From IMG/VR virus record IMGVR_UViG_3300044712_001463: a stretch of 64,000 nucleotides of DNA, one strand, 5' to 3'. The position numbers and the translations under genes are program-made. Shown one piece after another: positions 8,088-28,502 of this stretch. The notes beneath the pieces are model-generated. The model made no database searches. It was given only the letters and a program-made list of their open reading frames with translations, and had not been told where the DNA came from. This DNA is from a virus (lineage: Duplodnaviria > Heunggongvirae > Uroviricota > Caudoviricetes). Each line of letters starts with the position of its first letter. Positions within the stretch are counted from its first letter, which is position 1.

Positions 8088-8618
8088 ATGAATAAATCAT
8101 ACGAAGAAGAAGAAGTTGCAAGAAATCCAGAAACGCAAGCTTATAAACTCATCGAACTAAGCAGAAGCCTCAAGTCTCATGTTCGTGGGATTATAGCAAA
8201 AAACCCAAGCACCCCAAAGGATGTTCTTGGAAGACTTTCTAAGGACTCTGACTGGACCATTAGGGATGCTGTTGCTTGTAATGTTGAATGTCCGAGCAAG
8301 ATAATACAAGATTTGATTGAAGACGAAAATCTTAGAGTAAGACTTTCAGCTCTTAAGAATCCAAATTGCACAGCGAACATGTTATCAGAGTATGTGAATA
8401 GTGAAAATGTAAGAATAAGGTGTTCGGTCGCTTGCAACAAAAATCTTCTTCCAACTTCCTTGTTAGAACTTAGCAAGGATTCTAACTGGGAAGTCAGATT
8501 GTCGCTTGTTCACAATAAAGGACTTACAAGAGAAGCAATAGAAAATCTTACACAAGATGAATGTGAGTCTGTAAGAGAAGAAGCAAAAATAAAATTATTG
8601 GAGTTTGATAACAAATGA
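8088..8618 (+). CDS. HEAT/LRV-type alpha-helical repeat protein
   Basis: Repeated ~30 aa units (IRDAVACN, VRLSALKNPN, VRIRCSVACN, VRLSLVHN). Confidence 0.5.
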   Translation: MNKSYEEEEVARNPETQAYKLIELSRSLKSHVRGIIAKNPSTPKDVLGRLSKDSDWTIRDAVACNVECPSKIIQDLIEDENLRVRLSALKNPNCTANMLSEYVNSENVRIRCSVACNKNLLPTSLLELSKDSNWEVRLSLVHNKGLTREAIENLTQDECESVREEAKIKLLEFDNK

Positions 8619-9034
8619 TTTCTTACCGAGCAAATCTATTTGATAGTATAAAAAAGCAGATTCCATTGGAGCCTGGTGATTTGGTTATAATTCCTGGTTC
8701 AGATAGAGAATTTCAACACTATATTATTGTCGCTCCCCAAGGAGAATCAGTAGGAAAAAGACAATGTAAAAAAGATGAGATATATGCATACTATTTTAAT
8801 CTCGGATCAAAAGCAAGCGCATGGTTAGAACCGCTCGAAGTAAGAAAAATTAAAAAAGTAAATCCTATAAATATTGGCAGACCAAAATATAGAGTTAGGC
8901 AAAAGATAGGCAAAGAAATAATTCAAGCTCTAACATTTGATAAGGGATGGAAATATCTTTTTTGTACTAATAATAATGAGTCTTGCGAATGGATAAGAGA
9001 ACAGAGCCTAGAATTAGGAGCAAATCCAATATGA
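8615..9034 (+). CDS. MISYRANLF(E/D)S-leader family protein (first array member)
   Basis: N-term MISYRANLFDSIKKQ; ATGA overlap with upstream gene. Confidence 0.65.
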   Translation: MISYRANLFDSIKKQIPLEPGDLVIIPGSDREFQHYIIVAPQGESVGKRQCKKDEIYAYYFNLGSKASAWLEPLEVRKIKKVNPINIGRPKYRVRQKIGKEIIQALTFDKGWKYLFCTNNNESCEWIREQSLELGANPI

Positions 9035-9486
9035 TTTCTTACCGTAATGCAAACCTATTCGAGTCGTTGAATAAACAGCTTTCGGACCCAAAAGAAATTG
9101 GGGCAATATTTGTATTTGATGACGAAGAAGAAGGTTATATTGATTTCATTCAAACTTCTTATAAGGGAGCGAATAACTTTTATAGACTGAACTATGGGAA
9201 AAACATATTTAAGGAAAATGGATTTTATGATGAGGTAAAAACTACCACTGCTCAATTTTCCCAGCAAAACTTATGTAAGCTTTTCAAAATAAAACCATCA
9301 GATGTTGACAGAATTGAATTTGGATGGGATTCGGATACTCATGAGGAATTTTTGAGAGAAATAAGAGAAAAGAATGGAATCATAGAAAAAGCTAAGCATC
9401 TTAAGATGCTTAACAACATATCATTTTATACGAAAAAAGGAAAGAGAATTTATACTAATAAAGGGACGGTCGAAGGAAATGATTAA
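9031..9486 (+). CDS. leader family protein (MISYRNANLFESLNKQ)
   Basis: Start set at internal ATG 9031 with ATGA coupling; listed 8983 start overlaps upstream. Confidence 0.65.
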   Translation: MISYRNANLFESLNKQLSDPKEIGAIFVFDDEEEGYIDFIQTSYKGANNFYRLNYGKNIFKENGFYDEVKTTTAQFSQQNLCKLFKIKPSDVDRIEFGWDSDTHEEFLREIREKNGIIEKAKHLKMLNNISFYTKKGKRIYTNKGTVEGND

Positions 9487-9841
9487 CAAAACTATAAAAA
9501 AAATAAAAGAAACCTCTGATGCGATTGCAGCGATACTAAAAGATTTCGCTAGTATAGTTGCTAGCATAGCTGCTATAGGAACGGCGTCTATAACTGGATA
9601 CATAGAAATTAAGAAACTAACAGTTGTCGCTCTTCAAACAAGAAAAGAAACCAACAAACAAATAAAAGAAATCAGAAGTTCTAGTCCTCTAGGGCACGCA
9701 ACATCTACCACAGAAACCGCTGCGATAGTTGGGATTCCTTCTCCAATCGAAACATATAAGATGGACTACAATACTGGAATACTCGCCTTCTCTCTGCTTG
9801 TCATTCCTGTCATCTGGTTCTTCAAGAAAAAGAAGTCATGA
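9479..9841 (+). CDS. membrane protein (N-amphipathic, C-terminal TM)
   Basis: Hydrophobic C-term LAFSLLVIPVIWFF + KKKK. Confidence 0.45.
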   Translation: MINKTIKKIKETSDAIAAILKDFASIVASIAAIGTASITGYIEIKKLTVVALQTRKETNKQIKEIRSSSPLGHATSTTETAAIVGIPSPIETYKMDYNTGILAFSLLVIPVIWFFKKKKS

Positions 9842-10269
9842 ACTTAATCTCCTTCAGAAAAATTGGAAGTTCTGTTGAGTTATTTTCTTTAGGAGAAAGC
9901 AAGGATACTAGTTGGATTGGCTATGGCGTCTACTTTACAGACAATATTGATAAGATAAAAGAAAAAGGCTTGAGTGACATATTCTCAATTTATATTCCAA
10001 ATAAAGATCGTTTTTTGAACTTAGATAAATCATTAAAAGAACAAAGTGATTATATAAAAGAACTTTTGTCTAAGTTTGATTCAGAAATCTCTGGTAGCCA
10101 ATTATATGATTCGTTTCGCAGGTCTATGGGTAGCGCAGAAAATGTTTCTAAGCATTTGAATGATTTAGGAATTAACGGACTATATACAAGCAGAGATAAT
10201 TCCTTATGGTCCACAATGTTTGTGATATGGGACGATTCAATTCTTGAAAACATGAGGAGAGTAGAATGA
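9838..10269 (+). CDS. hypothetical protein
   Basis: 143 aa coupled ORF. Confidence 0.45.
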   Translation: MNLISFRKIGSSVELFSLGESKDTSWIGYGVYFTDNIDKIKEKGLSDIFSIYIPNKDRFLNLDKSLKEQSDYIKELLSKFDSEISGSQLYDSFRRSMGSAENVSKHLNDLGINGLYTSRDNSLWSTMFVIWDDSILENMRRVE

Positions 10270-11564
10270 GAATTGACCCAATTGTTTTTAAGAACAACCC
10301 ATTGGAGGTTCCTCCAATCAAAGAGATTGAATCTCCTAAGATAAAGAAAAAGAAACAGGATTCAAAAAAACAAAACTTTAAAGATGAATTTCAAGAAGCA
10401 GTTGATAAAATAAAGAAACACTCAAACAGGAAGATAAACAAATACGCTTCGTCAAACAACAAAGGAGAGAATCAAATGAAGAACCAAAGGGATGAAAGAA
10501 TTGAGGAGATGAATAGGATATTTGCGGTGAGCAATATTGAGCACTTGTTTGCTCTTGCTGCCAAGAAAAAAGATGACGACGAAGAAGAGGAAGATACATG
10601 GAGAGAGGAAAAGGATCCTACTGAACTAGAAGACGAAGATGTTGTGATAGAAGATGAAGAAGAGAATCCAGTAGACACTCTTGCTATAGACGCCGACAAA
10701 GAGACTGGAACCGCCGACCCAGTAGATGGCAAAGGAGCGTTTGATGAAGCCGATCATTTTAGCCGCATGCAAGAGAGGCTTGAGACAATAAAGCGTCTTC
10801 TGAACAAGCGCAAGAAGAAGGAAGAGGGAAAGCCAGTTGAGCATGGTCCAGAATCTTCTTTGGAAACCATTCTCAATGAGACTCCAGAAGAAACCAAAAA
10901 GCGTCTTGAAGAACAAGGGCTTACTGTAAAGCCTAAGCGCGATGAGAATGCGATTGAAGAGATGGAAAAGTGGAAGAAGGAAAGATTGGATGCATTTGAT
11001 GCCAAGGTTAAGAGAGAGAAAGAGACAGGAGTGGTAGAAGAACCAAAAGACGAGTTCGATGATAGTATTTTTGAGGAAACTGAGACAGCAGAAGATGAGG
11101 ATGTCTCAGGTAAAAAGAAAAGACAGGAAGTTAACATCCAGTCAAATCTTTTACCAATTGAAGAAGTCATAGAGTTAGCCATTGGAGAAGGAGTTCTAGA
11201 AGACGCAGACGATGCGGTTACGAATGAGTCTAAAGATAAACTAAAAGAAACCCTAGATGAGATTTATGACTTGCTCAAAGAAAACGCAAAAATTTCAAAG
11301 AGACATAAGAGTGAAGAGAGCAAGGGTAAGCACCTAGCACATCTAGATGAAGTGCTTGCCGAAGAAAAAAAGAAAATAGAAGCACAGGTTGACAAAGAAG
11401 ATGTATGTCAATATCTGTTAGCCTACTATCGTAGACAATTAAGATCTCTTAGAATGGAAGAGGACCGAGCATTGCTTATGAGCATAGATGCAGATAAAAA
11501 GACAAAGAAAACCGAAGAGGAGACGGAGCCTCCCAAAGAAGAGGAACCTAAAGAAGAGGAATAA
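10266..11564 (+). CDS. highly acidic KE-rich coiled-coil protein
   Basis: 432 aa, long E/D/K runs (EEEEDTWREEKDPTELEDED). Confidence 0.5.
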   Translation: MRIDPIVFKNNPLEVPPIKEIESPKIKKKKQDSKKQNFKDEFQEAVDKIKKHSNRKINKYASSNNKGENQMKNQRDERIEEMNRIFAVSNIEHLFALAAKKKDDDEEEEDTWREEKDPTELEDEDVVIEDEEENPVDTLAIDADKETGTADPVDGKGAFDEADHFSRMQERLETIKRLLNKRKKKEEGKPVEHGPESSLETILNETPEETKKRLEEQGLTVKPKRDENAIEEMEKWKKERLDAFDAKVKREKETGVVEEPKDEFDDSIFEETETAEDEDVSGKKKRQEVNIQSNLLPIEEVIELAIGEGVLEDADDAVTNESKDKLKETLDEIYDLLKENAKISKRHKSEESKGKHLAHLDEVLAEEKKKIEAQVDKEDVCQYLLAYYRRQLRSLRMEEDRALLMSIDADKKTKKTEEETEPPKEEEPKEEE

Positions 11565-11565
11565 T

Positions 11566-12270
11566 ATGTATTTTGAAATAAAAGACCAAATAAAGATAAT
11601 CGCAGCATTGTCCCTAGCAGATAAAAAGACTGCTAGGGACAATGGCATTTCTTATCGTGAAGCAAATTTATTTGAATCAATTAATAAAATAACCAATACG
11701 TCTAAGAGTGGTGACTATTATTTTAATCCAAAGACTAGAGCTTTTATGATACTCATGCCGCCTAGCAAGGATGCCGAAGCAGAAGATAAAAGCGGTAAGC
11801 CTAAGTGGAAATACATAGAAAGATTGCTAGGAAGAGGTGGAAGAGGTATTTCTGATAACGAGGCGCCGGCAGAGTTTGTTGCTGCTTTAAAAAAACCAGA
11901 ATACTACAAGGGAAATATTATAGAAGCTGGAACCCAAGAAATTAAAGATAAAATTATTCCAGGAAAAGAATATAAATTTAGATTTAAAGAGCCAGATGAG
12001 GAACAGGAAGAAGAAGATTCTATTATAAGAGTAATATTTGAAAGAGTTGGAATGTCAAGAGGCTGGTATAATGCTGGCTCAATATTTTCTCATATAAATG
12101 AACCTGAGAGACTCTACAGATATTTTGGACCAGAATACTATTATAAGTTTAAAACACCAGAAGATGGTATAAAATATAATGCGGTTCCTTTTTCACGGGG
12201 AAATTCATTTGATGGTGGAGTAGACTTAAATGATTACATCTTAAGAGATTATATTGAGGCAGATAAATGA
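11566..12270 (+). CDS. leader family protein with 24-aa N-terminal extension (…GISYREANLFESINK)
   Basis: Leader motif internal at aa ~25; start chosen after upstream stop. Confidence 0.5.
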   Translation: MYFEIKDQIKIIAALSLADKKTARDNGISYREANLFESINKITNTSKSGDYYFNPKTRAFMILMPPSKDAEAEDKSGKPKWKYIERLLGRGGRGISDNEAPAEFVAALKKPEYYKGNIIEAGTQEIKDKIIPGKEYKFRFKEPDEEQEEEDSIIRVIFERVGMSRGWYNAGSIFSHINEPERLYRYFGPEYYYKFKTPEDGIKYNAVPFSRGNSFDGGVDLNDYILRDYIEADK

Positions 12271-12725
12271 TTTCTTATAGAGAAAGAGTTATCAATTTAG
12301 TCAACGATCTCTTGAAAGAAAGAGGAATTAATTATTTGCGCCTTAATGACATTAAATTTGAAGAACCGCCAGCGGTTAGGCTCTCAGAATTTCTTTGGAA
12401 CAAACTTAAATGGGTAGGTAATTCAAAAACAGTCCCAGCTGAAGGCATTCTTTTTATTAAGGGCAACCATAAACTAGAGCCAGGTTGGGAAATTCATGAA
12501 AAAACACATCTTGAGAATCCCGTAGAAGAAGTCACAGACAAATATCCAATAAATGAACAAGAGATAAGACCATTTACAGAACAAATAAAGTTTTATTTAA
12601 CCAAGGGGCTTTCTAAATGGCATATTATTGATTTAATAAAGCAGGATTATGGAAATGATTGGAAAAAAGAATGGGAATCAGTTTTCTCGGATTTAATTGA
12701 TTCAATTAGAGAGGGCTCAAAATGA
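12267..12725 (+). CDS. MISYRE-variant family protein (lacks NLFESLNKQ)
   Basis: N-term MISYRERVINL; ATGA coupling. Confidence 0.6.
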   Translation: MISYRERVINLVNDLLKERGINYLRLNDIKFEEPPAVRLSEFLWNKLKWVGNSKTVPAEGILFIKGNHKLEPGWEIHEKTHLENPVEEVTDKYPINEQEIRPFTEQIKFYLTKGLSKWHIIDLIKQDYGNDWKKEWESVFSDLIDSIREGSK

Positions 12726-13174
12726 TTTCCTATAGAGCAAATCTATTTGAGTCTTTGAATAAGCAAATAGATAATAGCATAAAAATCGGAGACATTTTAT
12801 TTAATAAAGAAAAATGCTCTGTTTTATTTTATCAGGCGCCAGAAAATAGCTACTTTTATTCCTTTGCTATAATCTCTCCAAAAACAAGAAGATTTGTTCC
12901 AGAAGAGACCAATGCAAATAATTTGCTAAATGACAAATCGTATAAAAAAATAGGAAATATATTCCAAATTAAAAACGTTGACATCAATAAATGCGCAGCA
13001 GTTCAGTTCAAATCCCTTATTAATCTTGCTAGTCTTTTAACAAATATAAGTGAGGACACGGAAATAACTCCAGAAATTATAATTAATTATCTTAGACACC
13101 ACTATAAATCGGCTAATTTTATATCAAAAGACCATTTTAAAAAATTAAATGAAATATATGGAGAGAAGAAATGA
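12722..13174 (+). CDS. leader family protein
   Basis: MISYRANLFESLNKQIDNS; ATGA coupling. Confidence 0.7.
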   Translation: MISYRANLFESLNKQIDNSIKIGDILFNKEKCSVLFYQAPENSYFYSFAIISPKTRRFVPEETNANNLLNDKSYKKIGNIFQIKNVDINKCAAVQFKSLINLASLLTNISEDTEITPEIIINYLRHHYKSANFISKDHFKKLNEIYGEKK

Positions 13175-13641
13175 TTTCCCACAGAGCAAATCTATTTGAG
13201 TCTTTGAATAAACAGATTAAAGTTAATATAGGAGAGGACTGGATTGAAATAATAAATCCCTCATCCTTTATTAGTCTTGGAATACATGAGTCACTTGCTG
13301 TAAAATCGGTCCCATTTCTAGTGGGATATAAAGACTTGCGTGAAGTAAATAGCGTTGTCACTCTGATGTCGAATCAAGGGATACATGGAAATTGGAGTAA
13401 TCATCAAATAGATATAGAAGGGTTTTTGAAAATACCATTTTCTTCATATAAAAAAATAAACCCACCAATAAAATATGCTTTTAAAATCAATGAAGAGGTT
13501 ATTTACAAAACCAAGAAACAAAAAACAAAAATCATAAGCCATGTAACTGGAGCCCATGGATGGGGAAATCCAGAATATCTTTTGGATATACAAAATATTG
13601 GCGGTCCCCAGGACGAAGAAAGAATCGAGAGAGTAAAATGA
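13171..13641 (+). CDS. leader family protein, subtype A (WIEII...PIKYAFKINEEV)
   Basis: MISHRANLFESLNKQ; ATGA coupling. Confidence 0.7.
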   Translation: MISHRANLFESLNKQIKVNIGEDWIEIINPSSFISLGIHESLAVKSVPFLVGYKDLREVNSVVTLMSNQGIHGNWSNHQIDIEGFLKIPFSSYKKINPPIKYAFKINEEVIYKTKKQKTKIISHVTGAHGWGNPEYLLDIQNIGGPQDEERIERVK

Positions 13642-14135
13642 TTTCCTACAGAGCAAATCTATTTGAGTCTATAAATAAACAGATTACCATACAGCGCGGC
13701 GCTGTATATGAATGCACAGTATCGTTTTGGGCAAAAGCAGTCAACGAATTGATTACTGGAAATGCTAATAGGTCAATCAATACAAAGGTTTCAGAAAAAT
13801 ATTTATGCATTGGAGGCAAAGACGGAAAGTCATTTTTAAGAGAAAAAATGAATTATGGGCTTGTTCTTTCCGTTGATTCTGTTCAATTAAAAAATAACTT
13901 TAAAAAAATAGGACAATTTAATCTAGATAAATTTAAAAAAGGTGATGAGGTAATTTGGAGTTCTGAAAAGTTTATTTTCTTGGATTATGGATTAAATCCA
14001 GATGGCGAATTAAAAAGTTACTTAATATACAAAAAAGACTATAGAGATAACTCTGACTTATTATTTCTTTCTCCTTCTGCTAATCCAGATGTCAAATATA
14101 TTAAAAAAGAAGGAGATTCAAATGATCTCCTATAG
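13638..14135 (+). CDS. leader family protein
   Basis: Start at internal ATG 13638 (MISYRANLFESINKQ), listed start overlaps upstream. Confidence 0.7.
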   Translation: MISYRANLFESINKQITIQRGAVYECTVSFWAKAVNELITGNANRSINTKVSEKYLCIGGKDGKSFLREKMNYGLVLSVDSVQLKNNFKKIGQFNLDKFKKGDEVIWSSEKFIFLDYGLNPDGELKSYLIYKKDYRDNSDLLFLSPSANPDVKYIKKEGDSNDLL

Positions 14136-14550
14136 AGTCTCAAATCTATTTGAATCACTCAATAAGCAAATGCCGGAAAAAGCACAAGATGCTCCTGGAA
14201 GCATTTATTGGAATGGGTCCAATGGCAGTCTTTATATTAAACTGTATGGTGATGTTTGGGAGACATATCATTACGATTACGATGAACAGTCTTATAGGCA
14301 ATCTGTTAGTTTCGATGGAGTAGATTTGAACGGATTCAAATATATAGGAAATGTTTTTATTCTGAAGAAAACAAAAATCACTAAAGAAATAAAGGGCATA
14401 AATCTTACAGCCGTAGCAGTATTAGAATTAAAAACATTTTTAAATCGAAATAGAAATAAAATGGATATAGAAAATTTGAAGGAAACTATTAAAAATGCTC
14501 TTTTCACAATAGAGTATTTAGATGGAAAAATGGGGAGCTTTAAACAGTGA
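14122..14550 (+). CDS. leader family protein, subtype C (GSIYWNG)
   Basis: MISYRVSNLFESLNKQ; RBS aaggag. Confidence 0.7.
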   Translation: MISYRVSNLFESLNKQMPEKAQDAPGSIYWNGSNGSLYIKLYGDVWETYHYDYDEQSYRQSVSFDGVDLNGFKYIGNVFILKKTKITKEIKGINLTAVAVLELKTFLNRNRNKMDIENLKETIKNALFTIEYLDGKMGSFKQ

Positions 14551-15047
14551 TTTCCTATAGAACCTCAAATCTATTCGATTCTTTGAATAAACAAGTCCCA
14601 AAAATGATTTTTGGACAGACTTGGATTGAAATTATAGATTATAATCCTTTCATTAAAATGCCAGGAGTATCTAGAGTTGCAAATGGAGATATATTCCTTG
14701 TGTCTTATAGAAGAAGGCGCCATATAATAGAGAAACGTCTAGTGCTAATGGGTTTAAAAGAAGAAAATTTCATATGGGATGAGCATGAATTAAGTGTAGA
14801 AGAATTTAATTCATTGCCAAAAACTTCATATAGAATTGTGCCATCTCCGTTGAATTATAAGTTCAAGATAGGTCAAGAAGTAAGGTATGAAGCACTTATG
14901 TATGGAACAGATATAATACCTTATGGAAAAGTAATTAGTTATGCTACTGGTATTGGAAGAGTTGAAGCAAAGTGTTATTTGGTTGAAAAGTCGCCTCAAG
15001 ATGAGCCAATTTTAGAAGATGAATTAATAGCAATGGGTGAAAAATGA
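14547..15047 (+). CDS. leader family protein, subtype A (FGQTWIEIID...NYKFKIGQEV); GTG start
   Basis: GTGA overlap; MISYRTSNLFDSLNKQ. Confidence 0.65.
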   Translation: MISYRTSNLFDSLNKQVPKMIFGQTWIEIIDYNPFIKMPGVSRVANGDIFLVSYRRRRHIIEKRLVLMGLKEENFIWDEHELSVEEFNSLPKTSYRIVPSPLNYKFKIGQEVRYEALMYGTDIIPYGKVISYATGIGRVEAKCYLVEKSPQDEPILEDELIAMGEK

Positions 15048-15499
15048 TCTCCTATAGAACCTCAAATCTATTTGATTCTTTGAATAAACAAATAAGTCCC
15101 TTTAAACTAGGTGACGTATTTACTGTTAAAGAAAATAAAAATGTAACTCTAAATAGTGGTTTCACAGTTTATTCATCAGGAGAATATATTTATTCTCATA
15201 ATGCAAACGGCAAACTTGTATTTCAAATATGTAGAAATTATAAAGATTATGGACTAGTTGATTTATCAGAAGTAAATATGTTTTTTAATAAAATAGGACA
15301 TGCTGAGTTGTATGGCTTCAAGGTTGGAGACCAAATATCTGCTGGTCAAAAAACCGCTAGCATCGATGGTCTATATATAGCGAGAATAGGGTTTACTATT
15401 GATTCAGGACCCAAATTTACTGCTAGAGCATACTTATCTGATACAAAAGACTCAGAAGTCCCAGTTCATGGATGGGATCTTAAGGATGTAAAACGATGA
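15044..15499 (+). CDS. leader family protein, subtype B (LGDVF...FGFKVGD)
   Basis: MISYRTSNLFDSLNKQ. Confidence 0.7.
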   Translation: MISYRTSNLFDSLNKQISPFKLGDVFTVKENKNVTLNSGFTVYSSGEYIYSHNANGKLVFQICRNYKDYGLVDLSEVNMFFNKIGHAELYGFKVGDQISAGQKTASIDGLYIARIGFTIDSGPKFTARAYLSDTKDSEVPVHGWDLKDVKR

Positions 15500-16362
15500 T
15501 TTCCTACAGAGCAAATCTATTTGAGTCTTTGAATAAGCACCTTGGCGGATTTCGGCTTGGGGATATATTTGAAAATAGCGGAAATTCGCATCATTCGCTT
15601 TTTGTATATTCACATAATGTTTCCAATAAAGCAATTTTTATAAGACAGGACCATTCCCAAGACGTTATGGAAATAGATTTAAAAGAAATAAAAGAAGAAT
15701 CCTTAAAAAACCATAATCTTAAATTTGTTAGACATGGAGATTACCAAGGAATAAAAGTTGGTGACCAATATACTTTGAATGAATTAAATTATTTTGTTAT
15801 TGGGCTTGGATTGAATGAATCAGAAGTAGAAAAATTATATCTCAGTTTAGGCAAAATGATTAATATTACAGAAAAAAACACAGTTAGTGTTGCTAGAGAA
15901 GGAATTGAATTCGCGACTTTACCGACTAAAAAAACCGCAAACCTATTTGATTCTATAAATAAGCATCTACAAACTCAAGTGCCGAAGGAGCCACAGGCTG
16001 GCGACATTTTTTGGAATAAGCACTCAGAGAAGATTTGCATATGTTATGCTCCTAAAAATAGATTTTGGTATAGATGGGCAATAATATCGGGTAATGTTCG
16101 CGTTGACCATCAAGATTATAACTCAGACCTAGAAGGATTTACTTATTTGGGAAATATATTCAAAATTCGTCCCGAAGGTGAGAAATTTAAAAAAGAAGGA
16201 TTTGATGCGTGCGGCTTTGAGGACAGTTCCAATGAGGTGCTAGATTGGGTAAGAAGAACAGGAATTGAAAATGTAACAGGTCAAGGTATTATTCAATTTA
16301 TAAAAGATACTGACAAAATTATATGGAAAAATTCCTCAAGCGGAGACATTCAAGAGCCATGA
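15496..16362 (+). CDS. two-module leader family protein (B-like + C-like); internal motif KKTANLFDSINKHL at ~15937
   Basis: Leader core repeated internally after KK. Confidence 0.7.
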   Translation: MISYRANLFESLNKHLGGFRLGDIFENSGNSHHSLFVYSHNVSNKAIFIRQDHSQDVMEIDLKEIKEESLKNHNLKFVRHGDYQGIKVGDQYTLNELNYFVIGLGLNESEVEKLYLSLGKMINITEKNTVSVAREGIEFATLPTKKTANLFDSINKHLQTQVPKEPQAGDIFWNKHSEKICICYAPKNRFWYRWAIISGNVRVDHQDYNSDLEGFTYLGNIFKIRPEGEKFKKEGFDACGFEDSSNEVLDWVRRTGIENVTGQGIIQFIKDTDKIIWKNSSSGDIQEP

Positions 16363-19034: not shown

Positions 19035-19038
19035 TCAA

Positions 19039-20874: not shown

Positions 20875-21356
20875 TTTCTTACAGAGCCAACCTATTTGAG
20901 TCCCTTAATAAACAAATACCAAGAGTTGTCTTTGGACAAACGTGGATTGAGGTAATTGATCCAAAATCATTTGAACCATTTATCTCAGAGCGATACGCCA
21001 ACAAAGGCGTGCCATTTTTAGTGGGAGCACCATATATAGGTGATTTCCAAAGAAAAAGAATAACACTAATGGCGGCTAGTGGTTCTGCGGCTGATTGGAG
21101 TAATCGTAGTTTATCATTTGAAGATTTCCAAAAAATACCAAAGCAAGCCTACAAAATAGTGCCCTCTCCAATACCATATAAATTTAAAATTGGCGACGAG
21201 GTCATGTCAAATGTAGTTGGCAATAAAGGAAAAGTTGTTGCTTATTATTGTAATGGACAGAAAAGTGAAAACAAGCAAGCATATTGGATACAATTAAATG
21301 ATGGGACTAAGATGCAGAAATATGAAGAACATATTACAGGAGTATCTAATTCATGA
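20871..21356 (+). CDS. leader family protein, subtype A
   Basis: Start at ATG 20871; FGQTWIEVID...PYKFKIGDEV. Confidence 0.7.
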   Translation: MISYRANLFESLNKQIPRVVFGQTWIEVIDPKSFEPFISERYANKGVPFLVGAPYIGDFQRKRITLMAASGSAADWSNRSLSFEDFQKIPKQAYKIVPSPIPYKFKIGDEVMSNVVGNKGKVVAYYCNGQKSENKQAYWIQLNDGTKMQKYEEHITGVSNS

Positions 21357-21817
21357 TTTCCTACAGAGCAAATTTATTTGATTCCTTGAATAAACAAATA
21401 AATCCCTATAAGTCAGGAGATTTATTTAAGGCTATTGATTTTTTTAATATTAATGGCATGATAGATAAAAGAGGTAGAAATGTTAATAAAAATGATATAT
21501 TTATTCTGTCACACAAAATAGGAAATAAGTGTGTAATGCAAAGACAAGACTGTGAAGGTTGTGTTGTTTTATTTGACAAGAAGCAAATAGATGAACATTT
21601 TAAGTTATATAAACATGAGGATTTTGGACAATTTTCCATAGGGCAGAAGGTTTGCCCAAGAGATTTGTCAGATCGTCGCGCAGGAGAAGCAAGATATATC
21701 ATTAGATTTGGATTAACAGGAGAATTAGAACCTAAAGCCTATTTAGCATGGAGTCCTAGCGAAAATACTGCGGATGCTGGAGACTATAAACTTATAGATT
21801 TGAGGATTATAGAATGA
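21353..21817 (+). CDS. leader family protein, subtype B
   Basis: MISYRANLFDSLNKQ. Confidence 0.7.
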   Translation: MISYRANLFDSLNKQINPYKSGDLFKAIDFFNINGMIDKRGRNVNKNDIFILSHKIGNKCVMQRQDCEGCVVLFDKKQIDEHFKLYKHEDFGQFSIGQKVCPRDLSDRRAGEARYIIRFGLTGELEPKAYLAWSPSENTADAGDYKLIDLRIIE

Positions 21818-22479
21818 TTTCCTACAGACATTCAAACCTATTTGAATCCATTAAGAAGCAAATGCCCGCGAATCCAAAAATCGGGGATATTTATTATTGT
21901 CCTACAAGAAAATCCTTTGCTATTTTAAGATCGATAAGGGATATGTCCTGGGCCATCGTATATCGGGTAAGGGATAATAGATATACTACATGGAATAATA
22001 AGTCTTTAAACATCCCGGGTAGTATGTCCAAAATAGGAAATATGTTCGAATTAAAAAATTTGGAAATCCCTGAGCCGCCATATATAATATCATCTTTATC
22101 TTTATCATCTATGGTAAGAAAAATACGACAAGGCCAAGACCCTACAAAAGAATGGGTTCTTGATGAATTTAAAAACCTAACAAGCGCAGAAATCGCAAAA
22201 GAGGTCTTAGGCCAAGAGCATTATGAAAGAGAAGATAAAAAGACAGTAGCCAACCTATTTGAATCTCTTAATAAACATATAAATCATAAATATGTTATTA
22301 TAGGTCGGTATAATCCTAAGTCTCCTGATATATATTACTTTGGAAAAGAAAGAGGAACAAAGACATATACCTACGACATACAACTAGCAAAGGTATTCAA
22401 TAGTAGGGCAGAGGCCGAGAAAATTTTGAACAGTATATCGGATAAAAGATATTACAGAATCATAGAGGTCAATTCATGA
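21814..22479 (+). CDS. two-module leader family protein; internal KKTVANLFESLNKHI at ~22249
   Basis: MISYRHSNLFESIKKQ. Confidence 0.7.
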   Translation: MISYRHSNLFESIKKQMPANPKIGDIYYCPTRKSFAILRSIRDMSWAIVYRVRDNRYTTWNNKSLNIPGSMSKIGNMFELKNLEIPEPPYIISSLSLSSMVRKIRQGQDPTKEWVLDEFKNLTSAEIAKEVLGQEHYEREDKKTVANLFESLNKHINHKYVIIGRYNPKSPDIYYFGKERGTKTYTYDIQLAKVFNSRAEAEKILNSISDKRYYRIIEVNS

Positions 22480-23387
22480 TTTCTTACAGAGCAAACCTAT
22501 TTGAGTCCCTTCAGAAGCAAATGCCTGTCAATCTAGGAGATATAGTTGAAACTACTGCTACTGGTGGATATAGAATAGTTGGAATAGTTGCCACTAGAGA
22601 AGGGCAAGATATAAGTGACAAAAACAAAGGTGAAAAGGGATATGTATATATTTATGGATTTAATACAAAACTCAAGGAAGGTAATGGATTATTTCTAGTG
22701 CCAATAAGTAGTTTGAAAAAAATACCAGGTGAGCAATTGCCAACAAGACCCAAATACTCCCCAGGCCAAACGATTGGGAACAACATAAAAATCATTGCGG
22801 TTAATTATGCAAAAGATGATTATAGTTATCTTTGTGATAGTAGTGAAGATGGTCGGCGTTGGGGTCGGTGTTGGTATGATGAAAAAGAAATCGATCAAAT
22901 GCAATTATCCAAGAAGGCCAACCTATTTGAATCTATTAAGAAACAAATACCTAATGTTATCTTTGGAGAGACTTGGATTGAGATAATCGATCCAAAGCCA
23001 TTTAATTCGGCTAACATGCATAATTCATTTAATAATGGAGATGTATATTTAGTATCTTATCATGATAGAGAAAATATAGAAAGAGGATTGCTTTATTTAA
23101 TGGGAATAACTAGCAGGACATTCTCATGGGGTGAACACGAACTTACAAAAGAGCAATTTAATAAAATTCCTAAATCAGCTTATAAAGTAATACCATCGCC
23201 ATTAGAATATAAATATAAGATAGGCCAAGAGTTTAATGATTATGAACTAACTTTTAAAATAATCGCCCTCGTAACTGGATACAATGGAATAGAGCATCAA
23301 GATTATCTATGCGAGCAAGTAGGCTCTAGGGAAACTAGAATTTACAAACAAGAGGTTATTGATGGGCTTATGGGAGAGAACCAATGA
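22476..23387 (+). CDS. two-module leader family protein (D + A); internal KKANLFESIKKQI at ~22917
   Basis: MISYRANLFESLQKQ; FGETWIEIID. Confidence 0.7.
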   Translation: MISYRANLFESLQKQMPVNLGDIVETTATGGYRIVGIVATREGQDISDKNKGEKGYVYIYGFNTKLKEGNGLFLVPISSLKKIPGEQLPTRPKYSPGQTIGNNIKIIAVNYAKDDYSYLCDSSEDGRRWGRCWYDEKEIDQMQLSKKANLFESIKKQIPNVIFGETWIEIIDPKPFNSANMHNSFNNGDVYLVSYHDRENIERGLLYLMGITSRTFSWGEHELTKEQFNKIPKSAYKVIPSPLEYKYKIGQEFNDYELTFKIIALVTGYNGIEHQDYLCEQVGSRETRIYKQEVIDGLMGENQ

Positions 23388-23848
23388 TATCCTACAGGGC
23401 AAATCTATTCGAATCACTTAATAAGCAAAATCCAGTAATCTTTGGACAGACCTGGATTAAAATAATCGACTCTAAGCCTTTCCTTGAAATTCCAAATGTA
23501 AAGGATATTAGTGATGGAGATATTTTTCTTGTTTCTTATAAAAGTAAAGTTGATATGAGGGATGGTATTATATCACTTATGGGACTGAAGGTCGAAAACC
23601 TTATATGGGATAATCATAGTTTAAGAATAGATAGATTTAAATCTATATCTAGATCCGCATATAGAATCGTGCCATGCCCATTGAATTATAAATACAAAAT
23701 AGGGCAGACGGTTTATACTGGTCGCCCTGACAAGGTAATATCCCTTGCAACTGGCATCGGAGAACCAGAAACAAAATGTTATTTATTAGAACATAGTGCC
23801 CCTTATCCTATCCAAGAAAGTCAATTATCGGAAAGGGCTAGGAAATGA
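23384..23848 (+). CDS. leader family protein, subtype A
   Basis: MISYRANLFESLNKQNPVIFGQTWIKII. Confidence 0.7.
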   Translation: MISYRANLFESLNKQNPVIFGQTWIKIIDSKPFLEIPNVKDISDGDIFLVSYKSKVDMRDGIISLMGLKVENLIWDNHSLRIDRFKSISRSAYRIVPCPLNYKYKIGQTVYTGRPDKVISLATGIGEPETKCYLLEHSAPYPIQESQLSERARK

Positions 23849-24336
23849 TCTCTTACCGAGCAAATCTATTTGAGTCTCTTAATAAGCAAATAAATACCCT
23901 TAGGCCAGGGGACATACTTGAGCCTAAGTCTAATATTATGGAGGCTATTATTTCCAAAAAAGGGATAAGATGGGTTTTAGCTCCTAATGATATGTACAAC
24001 ATATCGCATATAAAAGGGAATTATTCAGTATTCGTAATAAACGGCAGTAGACAGACTTGGATTGAATTAACGCCAGAAGAAATACATAAATACTATAACA
24101 AAATAGGTGAGGCCAACCTATATGGATTTAAGGCAGGGGATAAGATTCCAATTTCTTGTGTTGAGAGAATGACAAATGTTCGGACACCTACAAATGAACT
24201 ATTTTTATATGAAATAATGGTTGTTGGAAAAGAAAGCCCACTATCAATTGGATTATTAGGAGCGGAAAATAGATTAGACCAAGCTTTTGCAACCTATCTT
24301 CCCCTAGAAGATCTAGCAAAGAGGTGTGGTAAATGA
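23845..24336 (+). CDS. leader family protein, subtype B
   Basis: MISYRANLFESLNKQ; YGFKAGDKI. Confidence 0.7.
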   Translation: MISYRANLFESLNKQINTLRPGDILEPKSNIMEAIISKKGIRWVLAPNDMYNISHIKGNYSVFVINGSRQTWIELTPEEIHKYYNKIGEANLYGFKAGDKIPISCVERMTNVRTPTNELFLYEIMVVGKESPLSIGLLGAENRLDQAFATYLPLEDLAKRCGK

Positions 24337-24794
24337 TCTCCTATAGAAATTCAAACCTATTTGAATCTATTAAGAAACAAATACTTCCTACTCCTGGGAT
24401 TATTTATCAGCCTATTGAAGATAAGCCTTGGCCTAACCCCTATTTAAATGTTAGTTTTTCAAAACAATGTTTTTATTTGTTCTCGCATATTAGGGATGGT
24501 AAGATGGTTCTTATTAGGAGAATGGCAGGAGATTGGGTTTTCGAAGTAAGTCATGATGAGATAAATAGTATTTTAAAGCCCGTAGGCCAAGCCGATTTAA
24601 AGGGTTTCAAAGTCGGGGATAAGATTCGCCGTAAAGGATTAAGTGAAATATTTATAATAGTAGGATTCGGCTTGACTGGCGATAATACCCCGAAAGCCTA
24701 TTGTATTCAAGAAGGAGCAGATATTGAACCTATCTGGGACTTCCATTTTACTAGTGCAATTTCATTAATGGTAATGGAAAAGGTATCCCAATGA
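24333..24794 (+). CDS. leader family protein, subtype B (PWPNP)
   Basis: MISYRNSNLFESIKKQ; KGFKVGDKI. Confidence 0.7.
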   Translation: MISYRNSNLFESIKKQILPTPGIIYQPIEDKPWPNPYLNVSFSKQCFYLFSHIRDGKMVLIRRMAGDWVFEVSHDEINSILKPVGQADLKGFKVGDKIRRKGLSEIFIIVGFGLTGDNTPKAYCIQEGADIEPIWDFHFTSAISLMVMEKVSQ

Positions 24795-25267
24795 TCTCCT
24801 ACCGGACCTCAAACCTATTCGATTCTATTAAGAAACAAATACCCTTTAGGTCAGGGGACATACTCAAACCTATTTCACCTACCAAAATGGATTGGAACGG
24901 ATGGGAGATAAATCCCGATAGGCCATACAATGTTTCGCATATAACGGAGAATGGATTAGTAGTCGTTCAAAATGGATTCTTATCTAGTGATTTCGCCAAA
25001 CTAACACTAGAAGATGCAAAATTGCTATTTGAAAAAATAGGTGAGTCCAACCTCTATGGTTTCAAGGTAGGGGATATGGTCTGTCCTGAATATGTTCGCG
25101 GGGTAAGGCAAACTGAAAAGACTTGTTATTACCTAAATAAAATACTTGTCAACGCAGCAGGTAAAGCATTTGGATTCTTTACTAAAGATAATAATAATGA
25201 TGCTAAGAAATTTGATTCATATTGTGAATTATCTAAATTGCAAAAACAAGGCGGTTCTGTCCAGTAA
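24791..25267 (+). CDS. leader family protein, subtype B
   Basis: MISYRTSNLFDSIKKQ; YGFKVGDMV. Confidence 0.7.
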   Translation: MISYRTSNLFDSIKKQIPFRSGDILKPISPTKMDWNGWEINPDRPYNVSHITENGLVVVQNGFLSSDFAKLTLEDAKLLFEKIGESNLYGFKVGDMVCPEYVRGVRQTEKTCYYLNKILVNAAGKAFGFFTKDNNNDAKKFDSYCELSKLQKQGGSVQ

Positions 25268-25584
25268 TCGGGTTTTACCCCGTAGGCCAAAGCATTAATT
25301 TTGTCCGGCGATTGGAAACATTGTAAAACTTTATAAGAAACTAGTAGTGTGTGGTAAAGTAATAAAAGCCCATAGGCCAAAGGATAAATTGAGTAATTGT
25401 TGCAAATGGTCTATTGTGGTTTATTGTGGGTAGGAATAGGATAGATTGGATAAGAGGGGAGGTGTAGTGTCATTCACCTCTCTTAATAAGATCTACAAAT
25501 CACCACCCTACCCTGGTTTGTTAAGTCATATTAAGTTTTGTCTATCGTTAATTAATAAATCTTAATAAGAAGGATTTATACAAC

Positions 25585-26118
25585 ATGATAAGTTATAGGA
25601 ATGCAAATATATTTGAATCATTAAAGAAGCAGATGTATCCTCTTGTTGGAGGCATATATATTTGTTTAGAGGATAAGCCCTGGCCTAACCCACGGAACAG
25701 GCATTTGGCTATTATAGAAGGTGAGAGATATATCTTTTCACATGTAAGAGATGGCAAGATGGTTCTAGTGCAAAAGATGCAGGGTGGGAATGTTTTCGAG
25801 GTAGGTCCAGGGGATATAAAAAAATACTTTAGTTTTCTTGACCAGGGTGATTTAAGAGGTTTCAAAGTAGGAGACATGGTTGTAAGGGGAGACGTTGAGG
25901 TTCTTGAAGTTCCAGGTAGAATGCATGAGGCCGGCAGGTCAATTCCTAGATATAAAATAATGGCATTCGGATTAGGAATAAGACTAGCACCCAAGGCATA
26001 TTGTTTAAGAGAGGGCTCTGGAACTGAAGAGGGAATTGGACTAGAATATTTGAAATGGAGTTTCGCCCATTGCGACTCAGAACTTCTTTTAGAACAGATA
26101 AAGAAGGCTGACAAATGA
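25585..26118 (+). CDS. leader family protein, subtype B (PWPNP); first gene after internal non-coding gap
   Basis: MISYRNANIFESLKKQ. Confidence 0.7.
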   Translation: MISYRNANIFESLKKQMYPLVGGIYICLEDKPWPNPRNRHLAIIEGERYIFSHVRDGKMVLVQKMQGGNVFEVGPGDIKKYFSFLDQGDLRGFKVGDMVVRGDVEVLEVPGRMHEAGRSIPRYKIMAFGLGIRLAPKAYCLREGSGTEEGIGLEYLKWSFAHCDSELLLEQIKKADK

Positions 26119-26591
26119 TCTCTTACAGAGCAAATCTATTCGAATCTATTAATAAGATAAATGCGCCTAGGCCCGGGGTTGTTTATGAAGGTATTGTGAA
26201 TAAGGATTGGCCTAACCCGAGGCACAATGATATTGGGATTACAGAAGGGGAGCAATATATTTTCTCTCATATGAGAAATGGCAAGATGGTTCTTGTTAGA
26301 AAAATGGCTGGTTCTTGGATTTTTGAAGTAAGTCCTAACGAGATAAATAAATACTTTAAACCCATAGGCCAAGCAAACTTACAGGGGTATGAAATAGGAG
26401 ATAAGATATATAGTGAAATGTATGGCAATGGAACCATAACAGGGTTCGGCCTAGCGGATATTGAAAGAATAAAAGCATATATAATTAGAGAAGGGATTGT
26501 TGAGGATGAGGATGACAAATGGGATTTTATATCTGGTAACGGTCACGATGATCCTTTATTGAGCAGAGTAGAAAAAGGATGGAAGAAATGA
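26115..26591 (+). CDS. leader family protein, subtype B
   Basis: MISYRANLFESINKI; KPIGQANLQGYEIGDKI. Confidence 0.7.
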   Translation: MISYRANLFESINKINAPRPGVVYEGIVNKDWPNPRHNDIGITEGEQYIFSHMRNGKMVLVRKMAGSWIFEVSPNEINKYFKPIGQANLQGYEIGDKIYSEMYGNGTITGFGLADIERIKAYIIREGIVEDEDDKWDFISGNGHDDPLLSRVEKGWKK

Positions 26592-27073
26592 TTTCTTATC
26601 GTAAGTCCAACTTATTTGAATCCTTAAACAAAATGAACATCTGTAGTCCAGGTGATATTTTTGAAGGCATTGCAAATATGCCCTGGCCTCATAGCGAAAA
26701 GCAGGTATGGATATGGAAGGGAACTCGTTATATATTTTCACATATGTATAATGGTAAGATGGTTCTCATACAGAAGAACGAAGGTAGCAGGATTTTCTTT
26801 GTATCACCTAGCGAATTAAATAAATATTTTAAGCGCATAGGCCATGCTGATTTTCAAGGACTTAAAGTAGGGGATTATGTTTATACTGAGAGCAGGGAGA
26901 CTGGGACTTTCAGGCATTATATAATAACTGCCCTGGGCCTATACGATGATGACAGTCCGATGCCCTGGTGTAGGTGGATACATGATTCAGTTCCATTTAA
27001 TCCAGAGAGGCCAACAAACAGAGCAGAAAGATTTTACTTAAAAGAGATTATTAAGAATCCACATCAGGGGTAG
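26588..27073 (+). CDS. leader family protein, subtype B
   Basis: Start at ATG 26588; MISYRKSNLFESLNKM. Confidence 0.7.
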   Translation: MISYRKSNLFESLNKMNICSPGDIFEGIANMPWPHSEKQVWIWKGTRYIFSHMYNGKMVLIQKNEGSRIFFVSPSELNKYFKRIGHADFQGLKVGDYVYTESRETGTFRHYIITALGLYDDDSPMPWCRWIHDSVPFNPERPTNRAERFYLKEIIKNPHQG

Positions 27074-27078
27074 GCCAA

Positions 27079-27618
27079 ATGATTTCTTATCGTGCAAATT
27101 TATTTGAATCCTTGAACAAGGTTGTCAAAAAGATTACTGAGTCTGGGCAATACTGCGTAGGCCCAGACGGAATTGTTTATTTTGTTAATGCTGGCGAAAA
27201 CATAGGGGACTTTTATTTAATGTCCGAAAAGGGTAATGTTACTAAGACCACGAACCTTGATGAGATTAATAAGAATTATCAATATACGACACCTAGGCCA
27301 GGGTGGGTAACTAAGAAAGTCAAAGACGGAACTCGATATGCTCATTATCCTCATAGGGCTGGGGATAAATATGAGGCAAGAGGTGCTGACGGAAGCTATA
27401 GGCTTATATGGATTTCATGCGGTTGCTATATAACTTCATTTAAGAATTTTTCTAAGATGATGTTAAGTTATAGAGCTGCAACTATGCCAAATCCGGAAGC
27501 AAGGAAGCCAGAAAGAAAACCTAGTTCGATAACGCACGAAGATGTTCTCATCAAAGATATATTGGATGATAATAATCAATGGGTTAATAATGATACAAGA
27601 GGCCCAGGGGGATACTGA
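27079..27618 (+). CDS. leader family protein
   Basis: MISYRANLFESLNKV; internal MMLSYRAA echo. Confidence 0.65.
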   Translation: MISYRANLFESLNKVVKKITESGQYCVGPDGIVYFVNAGENIGDFYLMSEKGNVTKTTNLDEINKNYQYTTPRPGWVTKKVKDGTRYAHYPHRAGDKYEARGADGSYRLIWISCGCYITSFKNFSKMMLSYRAATMPNPEARKPERKPSSITHEDVLIKDILDDNNQWVNNDTRGPGGY

Positions 27619-27621
27619 TAA

Positions 27622-28059
27622 ATGATTTCTTATCGTGCAAATTTATTTGAATCCTTAAAGAAGCAAATCAACCCTGGGCCTCCTAGGGTTGGTGATTTCT
27701 TTTGGGATAGCGAGAACCAGGTATTTATTCTCAAGACATGTGACCAGAACAATTCAAAATATGTTTTCGGACAGGCTTATAAAGATAGGGAAGATGGTGA
27801 GTTCCTATATAAATTCAGAGATAATGCTACTATCACTGGCAGACGTTTGGGCAATGTTCTAGATATGAATCCTAAAGCGGCTGAGGCTTTTAAAAGGAAT
27901 GAGATAAATTGCATAGAAACATTCAAGTTCATACAAAACCTTTGTGAATGGCTTGACAAGGCAAATATAACCGAGCGTGGTATCATAGAATATGTAAGAG
28001 CCTATAAGTTCGGCTGGATTAAAATAACTGCTGGTGGTGAAGCAGGAGTAGAACTATGA
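27622..28059 (+). CDS. leader family protein, subtype C (GDFFWDSEN)
   Basis: MISYRANLFESLKKQ. Confidence 0.7.
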   Translation: MISYRANLFESLKKQINPGPPRVGDFFWDSENQVFILKTCDQNNSKYVFGQAYKDREDGEFLYKFRDNATITGRRLGNVLDMNPKAAEAFKRNEINCIETFKFIQNLCEWLDKANITERGIIEYVRAYKFGWIKITAGGEAGVEL

Positions 28060-28502
28060 TTTCTTACCGGGCAAACTTATTTGAATCCTTGAACAGGGTG
28101 GTGGCTAAACAGTATCAGCCTGGGGATGTATTTAAGGAAAGTGGTATTGCTGATAGTTTTTCCATCTTAATGATTGAACGGGTAGGTAGAGAAAGAGGTG
28201 GACAAACTCTTTATTGGCTTCATAGAAAAGGTCTTCCCGATCAGAACATAAAGCTTACCCAGAAACAATTAGATGACAAGGCTAGTTTTAATTATATTAG
28301 GCACTTGGACTTGGGTGACTGGAAGGTAGGAGACTTTTGTAAATTAAACGAATCCTTCCAGGGAGATCAAGAAACATATAAAATAGAAACAATATTCCTA
28401 GATAACTTCGATATGGTCAGGGTAGGCTTAAATAAAAACTGGAGTTATCATAATGTTGCTGAAAAAACCGTGCTGCTTGTCCATATAAAAAAGCCTTCCT
28501 AG
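28056..28502 (+). CDS. leader family protein (last array member)
   Basis: MISYRANLFESLNRV; ATGA coupling. Confidence 0.7.
   Translation: MISYRANLFESLNRVVAKQYQPGDVFKESGIADSFSILMIERVGRERGGQTLYWLHRKGLPDQNIKLTQKQLDDKASFNYIRHLDLGDWKVGDFCKLNESFQGDQETYKIETIFLDNFDMVRVGLNKNWSYHNVAEKTVLLVHIKKPS

Follow-up and report, generated by a model that had tools for sequence, protein, structure and literature searches.

The internal proteins of phage T4 have in common only an N-terminal peptide of 10 residues, the capsid targeting sequence (CTS), which binds the scaffolding core and is cut off after (L/I)-x-Glu by gp21, the prohead protease; some 1000 internal-protein molecules stay in the head and leave it with the DNA, and one of the proteins, IPI*, inhibits a host restriction enzyme (PMC3012670, PMC9026906, PMC8442874). 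Residues 4 and 7 of the CTS govern targeting and residues 8 and 10 processing, and an Asp at position 10 blocks processing (PMC9026906). As read from NC_000866, the T4 leaders are MKTYQEFIAE↓A in IPII and IPIII (also PMC8442874) and MKTFKEFTSTTTPVSTITE↓A in IPI, the arrow marking the cut. In phage SPN3US, the ejection proteins gp53 and gp54 have identical 15-residue N-termini (MANFVKSKLARESVE) with a protease motif while the remainder has diverged, and the same phage carries a 20-member family of head-protein paralogs, largely in tandem (gp138-154; PMC5694885). Phage P1 packages DarB via an N-terminal signal (PMC9024508), and the hyperplastic regions of T4-type phages contain promoter-early stem-loop (PeSL) cassettes (PMC2839356). 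Here we describe a locus that recalls each of these systems in part. It lies in a 64,000-nucleotide stretch (hereafter, the window) of an uncultivated large phage (Caudoviricetes record IMGVR_UViG_3300044712_001463), where 33 small proteins of one family are encoded back to back within ~20 kb (8615-28502), nearly all of them beginning with a shared 15-residue peptide, the leader, ahead of a variable body.

A leader peptide shared by tandem small genes

A six-frame search of the window for the core motif N[LI]F[ED]S[IL]x[KR] returned 37 copies, exclusively on the + strand and all between 8633 and 28074, with none elsewhere in the 64 kb and none on the - strand; the number expected by chance is effectively zero. 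Thirty-one of the copies stand at gene starts, in the form M-I-S-(Y/H)-R-(0-1 residue)-(A/S)-N-L-F-(E/D)-S-(L/I)-x-K-(Q), and a typical leader reads MIS(Y/H)R-x-NLFESLNKQ. A first-pass annotation of this DNA, made from the letters alone, had likewise counted about 31 leader-bearing genes and had described their first 15 residues as identical. The shared leader was confirmed but exact identity was not, since the 15-mer MISYRANLFESLNKQ occurs in just 6 of the 31 genes. No variation is seen at M1, I2, S3, R5, N7, F9 and S11, and very little at Y4, L8 and K14. Position 10 is Glu in 28 of the 37 copies and Asp in the other 9; the residue at P3 is Leu in all copies save one with Ile (36/37). Together with a hydrophobic residue 16, Y4, L8, F9 and L12 form a hydrophobic stripe.

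The six remaining copies are non-initial. One (11665) lies behind a 27-residue N-terminal extension, and the other five are found inside two-unit fusion proteins (Table 1), each at a switch of body type, where a K-K-containing linker replaces MISYR and the part retained is (K-K)-A-NLF(E/D)S. Two genes keep the other half of the leader: gene 12267 has MISYR followed by a degenerate core, in which NLVNDLLKE aligns to NLFESLNKQ, and gene 4468, located 4 kb upstream of the array, starts with MISYR and lacks the NLFES core. Since five core copies occupy internal domain boundaries, MISYR alone is specific to the terminus; the description of the leader as a fixed N-terminal element thus holds for MISYR but not strictly for the core. 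Stop and start codons overlap along the array, as was first remarked, with 27 ATGA and 1 GTGA overlaps at 37 junctions, and purine-rich, Shine-Dalgarno-like tracts lie upstream. Because of this coupling and these tracts, the leader Met codons were taken as genuine starts, and the possibility that the leader is merely a misread start-codon context was rejected.

The constraint on the leader acts on the peptide. Information content among the copies is 2 bits at codon positions 1 and 2, as compared to 0.3-1 bit at position 3; among the leaders, Ser codons include TCN and AGT, Arg codons include AGA and CGN, and Glu/Asp is written with four different codons. When two leaders agree in an amino acid, they also agree in its codon with a frequency of 0.56, versus 0.47 expected from codon usage in the bodies. 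Since the synonymous sites of the leader are essentially randomised, these results indicate that the peptide, and not the DNA, is under purifying selection. Mean pairwise identity is 77% in the leader (10-residue core) and 23% in the bodies, which upholds the earlier view of diversified bodies behind a leader conserved at the protein level. As DNA, leader copies show 61-95% identity and bodies 60-80%, without any long stretches of nearly identical sequence; given only 61-95% identity, recent gene conversion does not maintain the leader. Two codons retain an additional, residual nucleotide-level constraint: the leader Leu codon has A in third position in all 37 copies (CTA 27, TTA 9, ATA 1) versus 55% of body Leu codons, and the Ala/Ser codon preceding the core has it in 32 of 37, while neighbouring synonymous sites are random.

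Among the databases searched, leader and family are apparently unique to one 94,861-bp JGI contig. An hmmsearch with a leader profile against all 1.84 billion cluster representatives (~15 billion proteins) returned 28 proteins, 26 of which are products of the same contig and two of which are low-complexity repeat proteins (E ~1e-4). The one foreign match of any note, an 898-residue membrane protein (P0027) with six (S/P)-N-[IV]-F-D-S-L-(T/A)-K-D repeats, had an E-value of 2e-4 and probably reflects coincidental low-complexity similarity. The back-translated leader pattern gave 19 unrelated single matches in all of IMG/VR, which is the level of chance, and chance single matches only in 185,579 prokaryotic genomes (GTDB). 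The best relative in the metagenome collection was 40% identical, and distant relatives had no leader arrays. An independent short-read assembly of run SRR26046407 contained two 8-kb Logan contigs, L020 (window 404-8601) and L021 (window 59223-67571), which carry the flanks of the array. L020 stops at the first array gene, and the repeat array appears to defeat short-read assembly of this run; the locus thereby illustrates how repeat-rich arrays are lost from short-read assemblies.

Diversity and predicted fold of the bodies

To compare the bodies, the array was cut into 37 units at each motif, the leaders were removed, and the remainders were clustered by blastp. The 37 bodies fall into type B (14), type A (7), type C (6), type D (3) and seven singletons, and the array as a whole comprises 37-38 units, each about 115-200 residues long. 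The four subtypes distinguished earlier were thereby recovered. Fusion proteins mix the types (Table 1), and adjacent B genes are each other's closest relatives. In profile-profile comparisons, A and B bodies align weakly (hhalign E 2e-4 over 85 columns), the body of gene 28056 is related to B and that of 19488 faintly to A, B and D, and nothing detectable links type C, or five of the singletons, to A, B and D beyond the first strand. That strand, Gly-Asp-hydrophobic-hydrophobic, lies ~7 residues past the leader in nearly all types, and G23 is invariant in 30 sequences. Because the G-D strand is shared and A and B show weak homology, we favour very deep divergence of the bodies from a single ancestor, as judged from their sequences, over the convergence on SH3-like features that was originally suggested.

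The SH3-like features themselves stood up in AlphaFold structure models, which cover types A and B. Both were predicted as SH3/Tudor-like barrels (predicted template modelling scores 0.77 and 0.79), with the five strands of an SH3-like barrel in the predicted three-dimensional structure. Per-residue confidence (pLDDT, predicted local distance difference test) is mostly 80-97 in the bodies, <50 in the leader of type A and 50-67 in that of type B; the leader forms a short helix that is not packed against the body. For membership in a curated SH3, Tudor or KOW family there was no Pfam match, and PDB profile searches yielded nothing significant. In fact, no subtype had a match in Pfam, PHROG, PADLOC or PDB sequence profiles, and neither a BFVD fold search nor megablast against deposited phages produced one. 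The initial statement that no known phage family could be matched was thus borne out, and the bodies belong to no well-known single-function family; by sequence they fall in no known protein family, and by predicted fold they would be placed in the SH3-like superfamily. The bodies are small and mildly basic (median isoelectric point [pI] 8.6; 24 of 37 above 8, 6 of 37 below 6). Depletion of [LI]-x-E sites in the bodies was considered and rejected, as these sites are instead enriched (78 observed versus 56.6 expected, z +3.3).

Possible functions of the leader

The array is best explained as a lineage-specific expansion of small proteins. For the leader, we tentatively favour, with less than even confidence, a role as a shared address tag whose closest analogue is the T4 CTS. 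Each unit consists of a flexible 15-residue peptide that a short, variable linker joins to its body, a predicted SH3/Tudor-like beta-barrel. On the address-tag model, the MISYR half would dock to the assembling prohead core, and the A-N-L-F-E↓S half would serve as a site for a Glu-specific prohead protease that releases the body, so that processed products would begin at Ser11 (SLNKQ...). Fusion proteins would be targeted once, via their N-terminal MISYR, and then split at the internal ANLFES site. The bodies would stay in the capsid with the DNA and be ejected into the next host, where they could act as a library of binders and inhibitors. Capsid targeting, cleavage, ejection and anti-host activity are what we infer from the analogy with T4. 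The first-pass annotation had read the array as a fast-diversifying effector repertoire on a fixed N-terminal signal; effector and signal would likewise be putative roles.

The analogy starts from the peptide. MISYRANLFE↓S and the T4 leader MKTYQEFIAE↓A have in common M1, S/T3, Y4, an aliphatic residue 8 (P3), Glu10 (P1) and a small P1' residue, and L-F-E↓S is present in 28 of 37 copies. As in T4, targeting and processing elements appear to be separable, with fusion boundaries keeping A-NLF(E/D)S, gene 4468 keeping MISYR, and gene 12267 having MISYR with a degenerate core. The product of gene 4468 has an HEMTH (HExxH) zinc-protease motif, a sub-threshold match to the 'effector protein' family Peptidase_M91 (17.7 bits versus a cutoff of 25) and no similarity that could be detected with the bodies of the family; possibly it is a cargo of another build that uses the same five N-terminal residues. 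A detachable propeptide fits the low pLDDT of the leader (<50-67) on confidently predicted bodies, and non-early expression of the array fits the terminators that bracket it and the absence of all 32 of the window's perfect promoters from its interior. Weak support comes from the small size and mildly basic pI of the bodies (in T4, the pI is 9.6-9.7 for IPII and IPIII and 7.9 for IPI) and from the jumbo or huge phages to which the nearest protein-level relatives of flanking genes belong.

Several observations weigh against a CTS-like role. Scans with Pfam and PHROGs, which did not take in every open reading frame, recognised no head gene in the 64-kb window, be it prohead protease, scaffold, capsid or portal; the contig is 94,861 bp long and extends ~31 kb beyond the window. 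Asp, which blocks processing in T4, occupies position 10 in 9 of 37 copies, and the S-L-N-K-Q that follows the putative cut is as conserved as the residues before it. Identity to the T4 CTS is just 3 of 10 residues (M1, Y4, E10), conservative at 3 and 8, over a length too short for statistics. Proteases of the T4 family reportedly have 'very few determinants' beyond Glu in published logos, and mature T4 internal proteins contain no [LI]-x-E (2.8 expected, P 0.04), whereas the array bodies are enriched in it. Since the bodies are so rich in these sites, a T4-type protease of minimal specificity would shred the family proteins, and a protease acting here would need an extended recognition of N-L-F-E-S-L. 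A lack of sigma-70 promoters is likewise compatible with read-through or with expression of the middle class. Finally, 37 units is, to our knowledge, more than 10 times the size of any known internal-protein set.

Some of these difficulties do not arise if the leader is instead a linear docking motif for a hub outside the virion, an alternative that we regard as rather doubtful. An amphipathic helix, A-NLFESLNKQ-hydrophobic, would bind one common hub, such as a host protein, a phage adaptor (for example the HEAT/LRV alpha-solenoid encoded at the head of the operon) or an AAA+ machine, the variable SH3-like bodies would bind different targets, and the array would amount to a repertoire of adaptors or inhibitors inside the infected cell. 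Such a motif accounts better than a capsid tag for the core being retained, one per unit, at internal boundaries where an N-terminal signal is needless, and for the Glu/Asp interchange at position 10, which together with the two-sided conservation suits a binding helix better than a scissile bond. The hydrophobic stripe (Y4, L8, F9, L12 and position 16), a leader that is disordered or detached in both models, and bodies that do not avoid [LI]-x-E are also in keeping with docking. SH3, Tudor and KOW barrels are classic interaction modules, and the gene coupled in translation to the first family gene encodes a helical-repeat protein, a kind of scaffold that typically binds peptides. Docking fares worse on MISYR, whose conservation at true N-termini only, and on the unrelated gene 4468, it leaves unexplained, and on the promoter-less operon, as a lack of early promoters is unexpected for host-takeover proteins. 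Moreover, no partner was identified, to name the HEAT/LRV protein (8088-8618) as the leader receptor is speculative, and there is no known phage precedent for a motif-plus-binder repertoire.

We consider it unlikely that the leader is simply a helix intrinsic to the domain of an ancestral two-barrel protein, the slowest-evolving segment in an otherwise ordinary, if extreme, expansion of tandem paralogs, with a role such as self-association or nucleic-acid contact. Under this explanation conservation would be expected to run past the leader, as it does into the G-D-hydrophobic-hydrophobic strand (G23), and every unit, internal ones included, would keep its own helix. The weak homologies between A and B, between B and 28056, and of 19488 with A, B and D agree with it, as does the closest relationship of neighbouring B genes to each other, which tandem duplication predicts; SH3-like barrels of mildly basic pI also include DNA binders. 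However, AlphaFold leaves the helix unpacked and at low confidence, a contrast of 77% to 23% identity is far above what is usual for one domain, and type C and the five singletons have no detectable relation with A, B or D past the first strand. MISYR, furthermore, is also found on 4468, with no detectable similarity in body, and on 12267, with its degenerate core.

That the repeat serves at the level of nucleic acid and is translated only incidentally, be it as a promoter, a regulatory cassette, a site of recombination or an RNA structure for reinitiation at the ATGA overlaps, is highly improbable and was rejected, for although two leader codons show excess conservation, the conserved segment starts exactly at the ATGA overlap and repeated regulatory cassettes occur elsewhere in the same genome, the codon-position pattern largely refutes it, most codons varying freely at the third position, internal copies keep the peptide without a start codon, the array contains no sigma-70 promoter and no long near-identical repeats, RNAalifold gave no consensus structure across 21 junctions and Rfam gave no match in the array (its matches in the window being tRNAs only).

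Across the address-tag and docking readings, one could conceive of the array as a phage library of ~37 SH3-like binders, all coupled by an invariant handle peptide to a single machine, which could be the prohead core (capsid pre-loading) or a dedicated receptor, for example the HEAT/LRV protein that is co-transcribed with the array; we would give this synthesis a low probability. If true, a germline-diversified repertoire of binders would be delivered together to disarm a multitude of host defence proteins simultaneously, the internal handle sites would be where two-unit polyproteins are separated, and no address-tagged repertoire known from a bacterial virus would come near the array in size. 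Were the address tag correct, the locus would be a natural, large-scale version of T4 'expression-packaging-processing', in which one peptide directs dozens of cargo proteins, and internal or ejected proteins, so far a handful, would come to include a diversified repertoire. It would also supply ~37 domains, built on a compact SH3-like scaffold, as candidates for anti-defence or host-binding functions, and a new 15-residue tag for loading large phage capsids. Were docking outside the virion correct, a constant handle with a variable binder would constitute a new organisation of host takeover.

Setting of the array and comparison with described systems

The features of the array and its borders are listed in Table 1. 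All genes in the window lie on the + strand. The HEAT/LRV gene is coupled to the first family gene by an ATGA overlap. The three embedded non-family genes matched no family, and the 432-residue acidic protein among them has a composition resembling that of a scaffold.

Table 1. Features of the leader array and adjacent DNA (window coordinates; letters in parentheses are body types)
Position	Strand	Feature	Details
4468-4971	+	Non-array gene starting MISYR	167 residues; HEMTH (HExxH) zinc-protease motif
7966-7989	+	Intrinsic terminator	10-bp stem, then T-run; ends upstream transcription unit; left boundary of array operon
8088-8618	+	First operon gene, non-family	HEAT/LRV alpha-solenoid repeat protein, 176 residues
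8615-9034	+	Family gene, type D-like	Leader MISYRANLFDSIKKQ
9031-9486	+	Family gene, singleton body	Leader MISYRNANLFESLNKQ
9479-11564	+	Three non-family genes embedded in array	Next three rows
9479-9841	+	Non-family gene	C-terminal hydrophobic segment; pI 9.8
9838-10269	+	Non-family gene	143 residues
10266-11564	+	Non-family gene	432 residues; Lys/Glu-rich, extremely acidic; pI 4.8; grand average of hydropathy (GRAVY) -1.29
11566-12270	+	Family gene, singleton body	Leader G-ISYREANLFESINK behind 27-residue N-terminal extension
12267-12725	+	Degenerate-leader gene	MISYRERVINLVNDLLKE
12722-15499	+	Six single-unit family genes	12722 (C), 13171 (A), 13638 (divergent B), 14122 (C), 14547 (A, GTG start), 15044 (B)
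15496-16362	+	Two-unit fusion B+C	Internal motif TKKTANLFDSINKH, core 15940
16359-17222	+	Two-unit fusion D+B	Internal motif LNKKANLFDSLNKQ, core 16788
17219-17581	+	Family gene, singleton body	120 residues
17584-18558	+	Two-unit fusion A+B (P0001)	Internal motif KKEIRNANLFESLNKH, core 18103
18555-21817	+	Seven single-unit family genes	18555 (B), 19039 (B), 19488 (singleton, weakly A/B/D-like), 19931 (C), 20371 (A), 20871 (A), 21353 (B)
21814-22479	+	Two-unit fusion, C + short 75-residue unit	Internal motif DKKTVANLFESLNKH, core 22252
22476-23387	+	Two-unit fusion D+A (P0002)	Internal motif LSKKANLFESIKKQ, core 22920
23384-25267	+	Four single-unit family genes	23384 (A), 23845 (B), 24333 (B), 24791 (B)
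25268-25584		Non-coding gap, 317 nt	Imperfect hairpin; no sigma-70 consensus promoter; sole sizeable non-coding interval within array
25585-28502	+	Six family genes	25585 (B), 26115 (B), 26588 (B), 27079 (singleton), 27622 (C), 28056 (B-related, hhalign probability 88%)
28581-28611	+	Intrinsic terminator at array end	Followed by hairpin 28648 and perfect TTGACA-N16-TATAAT promoter 28692

Two sharply contrasting types of gene organisation occur in the window. It contains 32 perfect sigma-70 promoters (TTGACA-N16-TATAAT, 12/12), all on the + strand with a 16-nt spacer, which is an extraordinary density; three lie at 0.9-3.5 kb (954-3463) and 29 at 28.7-54.5 kb (28692-54468), about one per gene, and there are none in the array, none on the - strand and none at 54.5-64 kb. 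The promoter at 28692 opens the second of these promoter-rich regions, directly after the array. A hairpin, CTACTTA-N4-TAAGTAG, occurs in 15 copies between 28648 and 54931 (e.g., 28648, 33978, 39062, 49852 and 54914; 0.09 expected by chance), about 10 of them 44-74 nt upstream of a perfect promoter. Hairpin and promoter together look like a mobile regulatory cassette of the PeSL kind, with the stem-loop upstream. GC content varies strongly within the contig, being 32-38% in the array and at 55-64 kb, as compared to ~50% in the promoter-rich regions (0.9-3.5 and 28.7-54.5 kb, including the block at 30-54 kb), and it shifts at the same points as gene organisation does. Since the array is bracketed by terminators and free of promoters, unlike its early-type neighbours, it forms one or two long, translationally coupled operons of another expression class; no convincing alternative promoter motif common to the low-GC blocks was found. 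The right-hand low-GC block also contains two pairs of small paralogs, one with hydrophobic N-termini (56934-57155, ...MLRVTWT...; 61360-61584, ...MLRVWWT...) and one Cys-rich, both members starting M-K-x-I-I-C-K-C-G-H (59079-59297; 60838-61194).

Genes flanking the array encode an AAA ATPase, an MnmA-like tRNA thiolase, an HNH protein, a band-7 protein, a Dam-like methyltransferase, a PP-loop ATPase, a radical-SAM protein and a metallophosphatase. Protein-level searches with four of the flanking genes found relatives in jumbo or huge phages and crAss-like phages, all at <45% identity; the nearest deposited relatives are 27-43% identical and include phages of 270-735 kb. The contig is probably a fragment of a jumbo phage. 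Seven or eight tRNAs are located at 30.5-35.6 kb, starting 2 kb from the end of the array, the eighth being a weak tRNA-like Rfam match (35481-35554; 32 bits versus a gathering score of 29) that ARAGORN did not call. The PP-loop ATPase (29843-30475, QueC/TilS-like), the small radical-SAM protein (39123-39746, QueE/HxsC-like, PHROG 31524) and the MnmA-like protein (1009-2031) suggest phage-encoded modification of tRNA or with 7-deazaguanine. The radical-SAM gene was also considered as a leader-dependent maturase, which is unlikely for a QueE/HxsC-like gene 11 kb away with its own promoter.

Of the regulatory systems described, PeSL cassettes resemble the array in placing short repeats, as possible recombination points for shuffling, at gene boundaries of a plastic region rich in ORFans (open reading frames lacking relatives), and cassettes of hairpin and perfect promoter do fill the neighbouring 28.7-54.5 kb block. 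The array repeat, in contrast, is a translated peptide under protein-level selection without promoter or stem-loop; its conservation depends on frame, and no perfect promoter and no consensus RNA fold was found at the array repeats. Phage P1 offers a precedent for targeting, as 30 or fewer N-terminal residues suffice to send cargo into its capsid and DarB, an anti-restriction protein, is delivered with the DNA. DarB is a single 250 kDa protein, however, there is no consensus among the Dar proteins, and no gene array is involved. SPN3US and phiKZ resemble the array in architecture, with a large tandem family of small paralogs in a jumbo phage whose member numbers differ greatly between phages and, in SPN3US, identical 15-residue N-termini with a Glu-protease motif on the diverged bodies of gp53 and gp54. 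Yet no array subtype matched PF12699 (inner-body proteins) or any PHROG, the SPN3US cleavage motif is S/A/G-x-E whereas P3 in the array is Leu or Ile and never Ser, Ala or Gly, and the 20 members of SPN3US family B have no reported common leader. Virion location, proven in SPN3US, is a proposal for the array proteins.

The T4 internal proteins remain the closest analogue. In both systems, diverse small proteins have a short N-terminal peptide in common, and a packaged and ejected anti-host role is proposed; as weak further support, the T4 ip genes flank a tRNA cluster in a plastic genome region, as the array does. The differences are nevertheless substantial. There are 37 units here and 3 in T4; the leader is conserved over 15 residues, 5 past the putative cut; two-unit fusions with internal motifs and an ATGA-coupled operon are particular to the array; and its bodies are predicted SH3-like barrels rich in [LI]-x-E, which T4 internal proteins lack. 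Sequence homology between the two is undetectable. Despite its similar sequence logic, the locus cannot be filed as a member of the CTS/internal-protein systems. The first-pass annotation had read it as having no known match, which stands for sequence families, although conceptual precedents exist in the T4 CTS and in SPN3US. A constant address peptide on varied cargo, if that is what the leader provides, is already known from T4; what is new here is the peptide itself, the SH3-like scaffold of the cargo, the scale of 37 units, the polyprotein-like fusions with internal motifs, and their arrangement in a single coupled operon.

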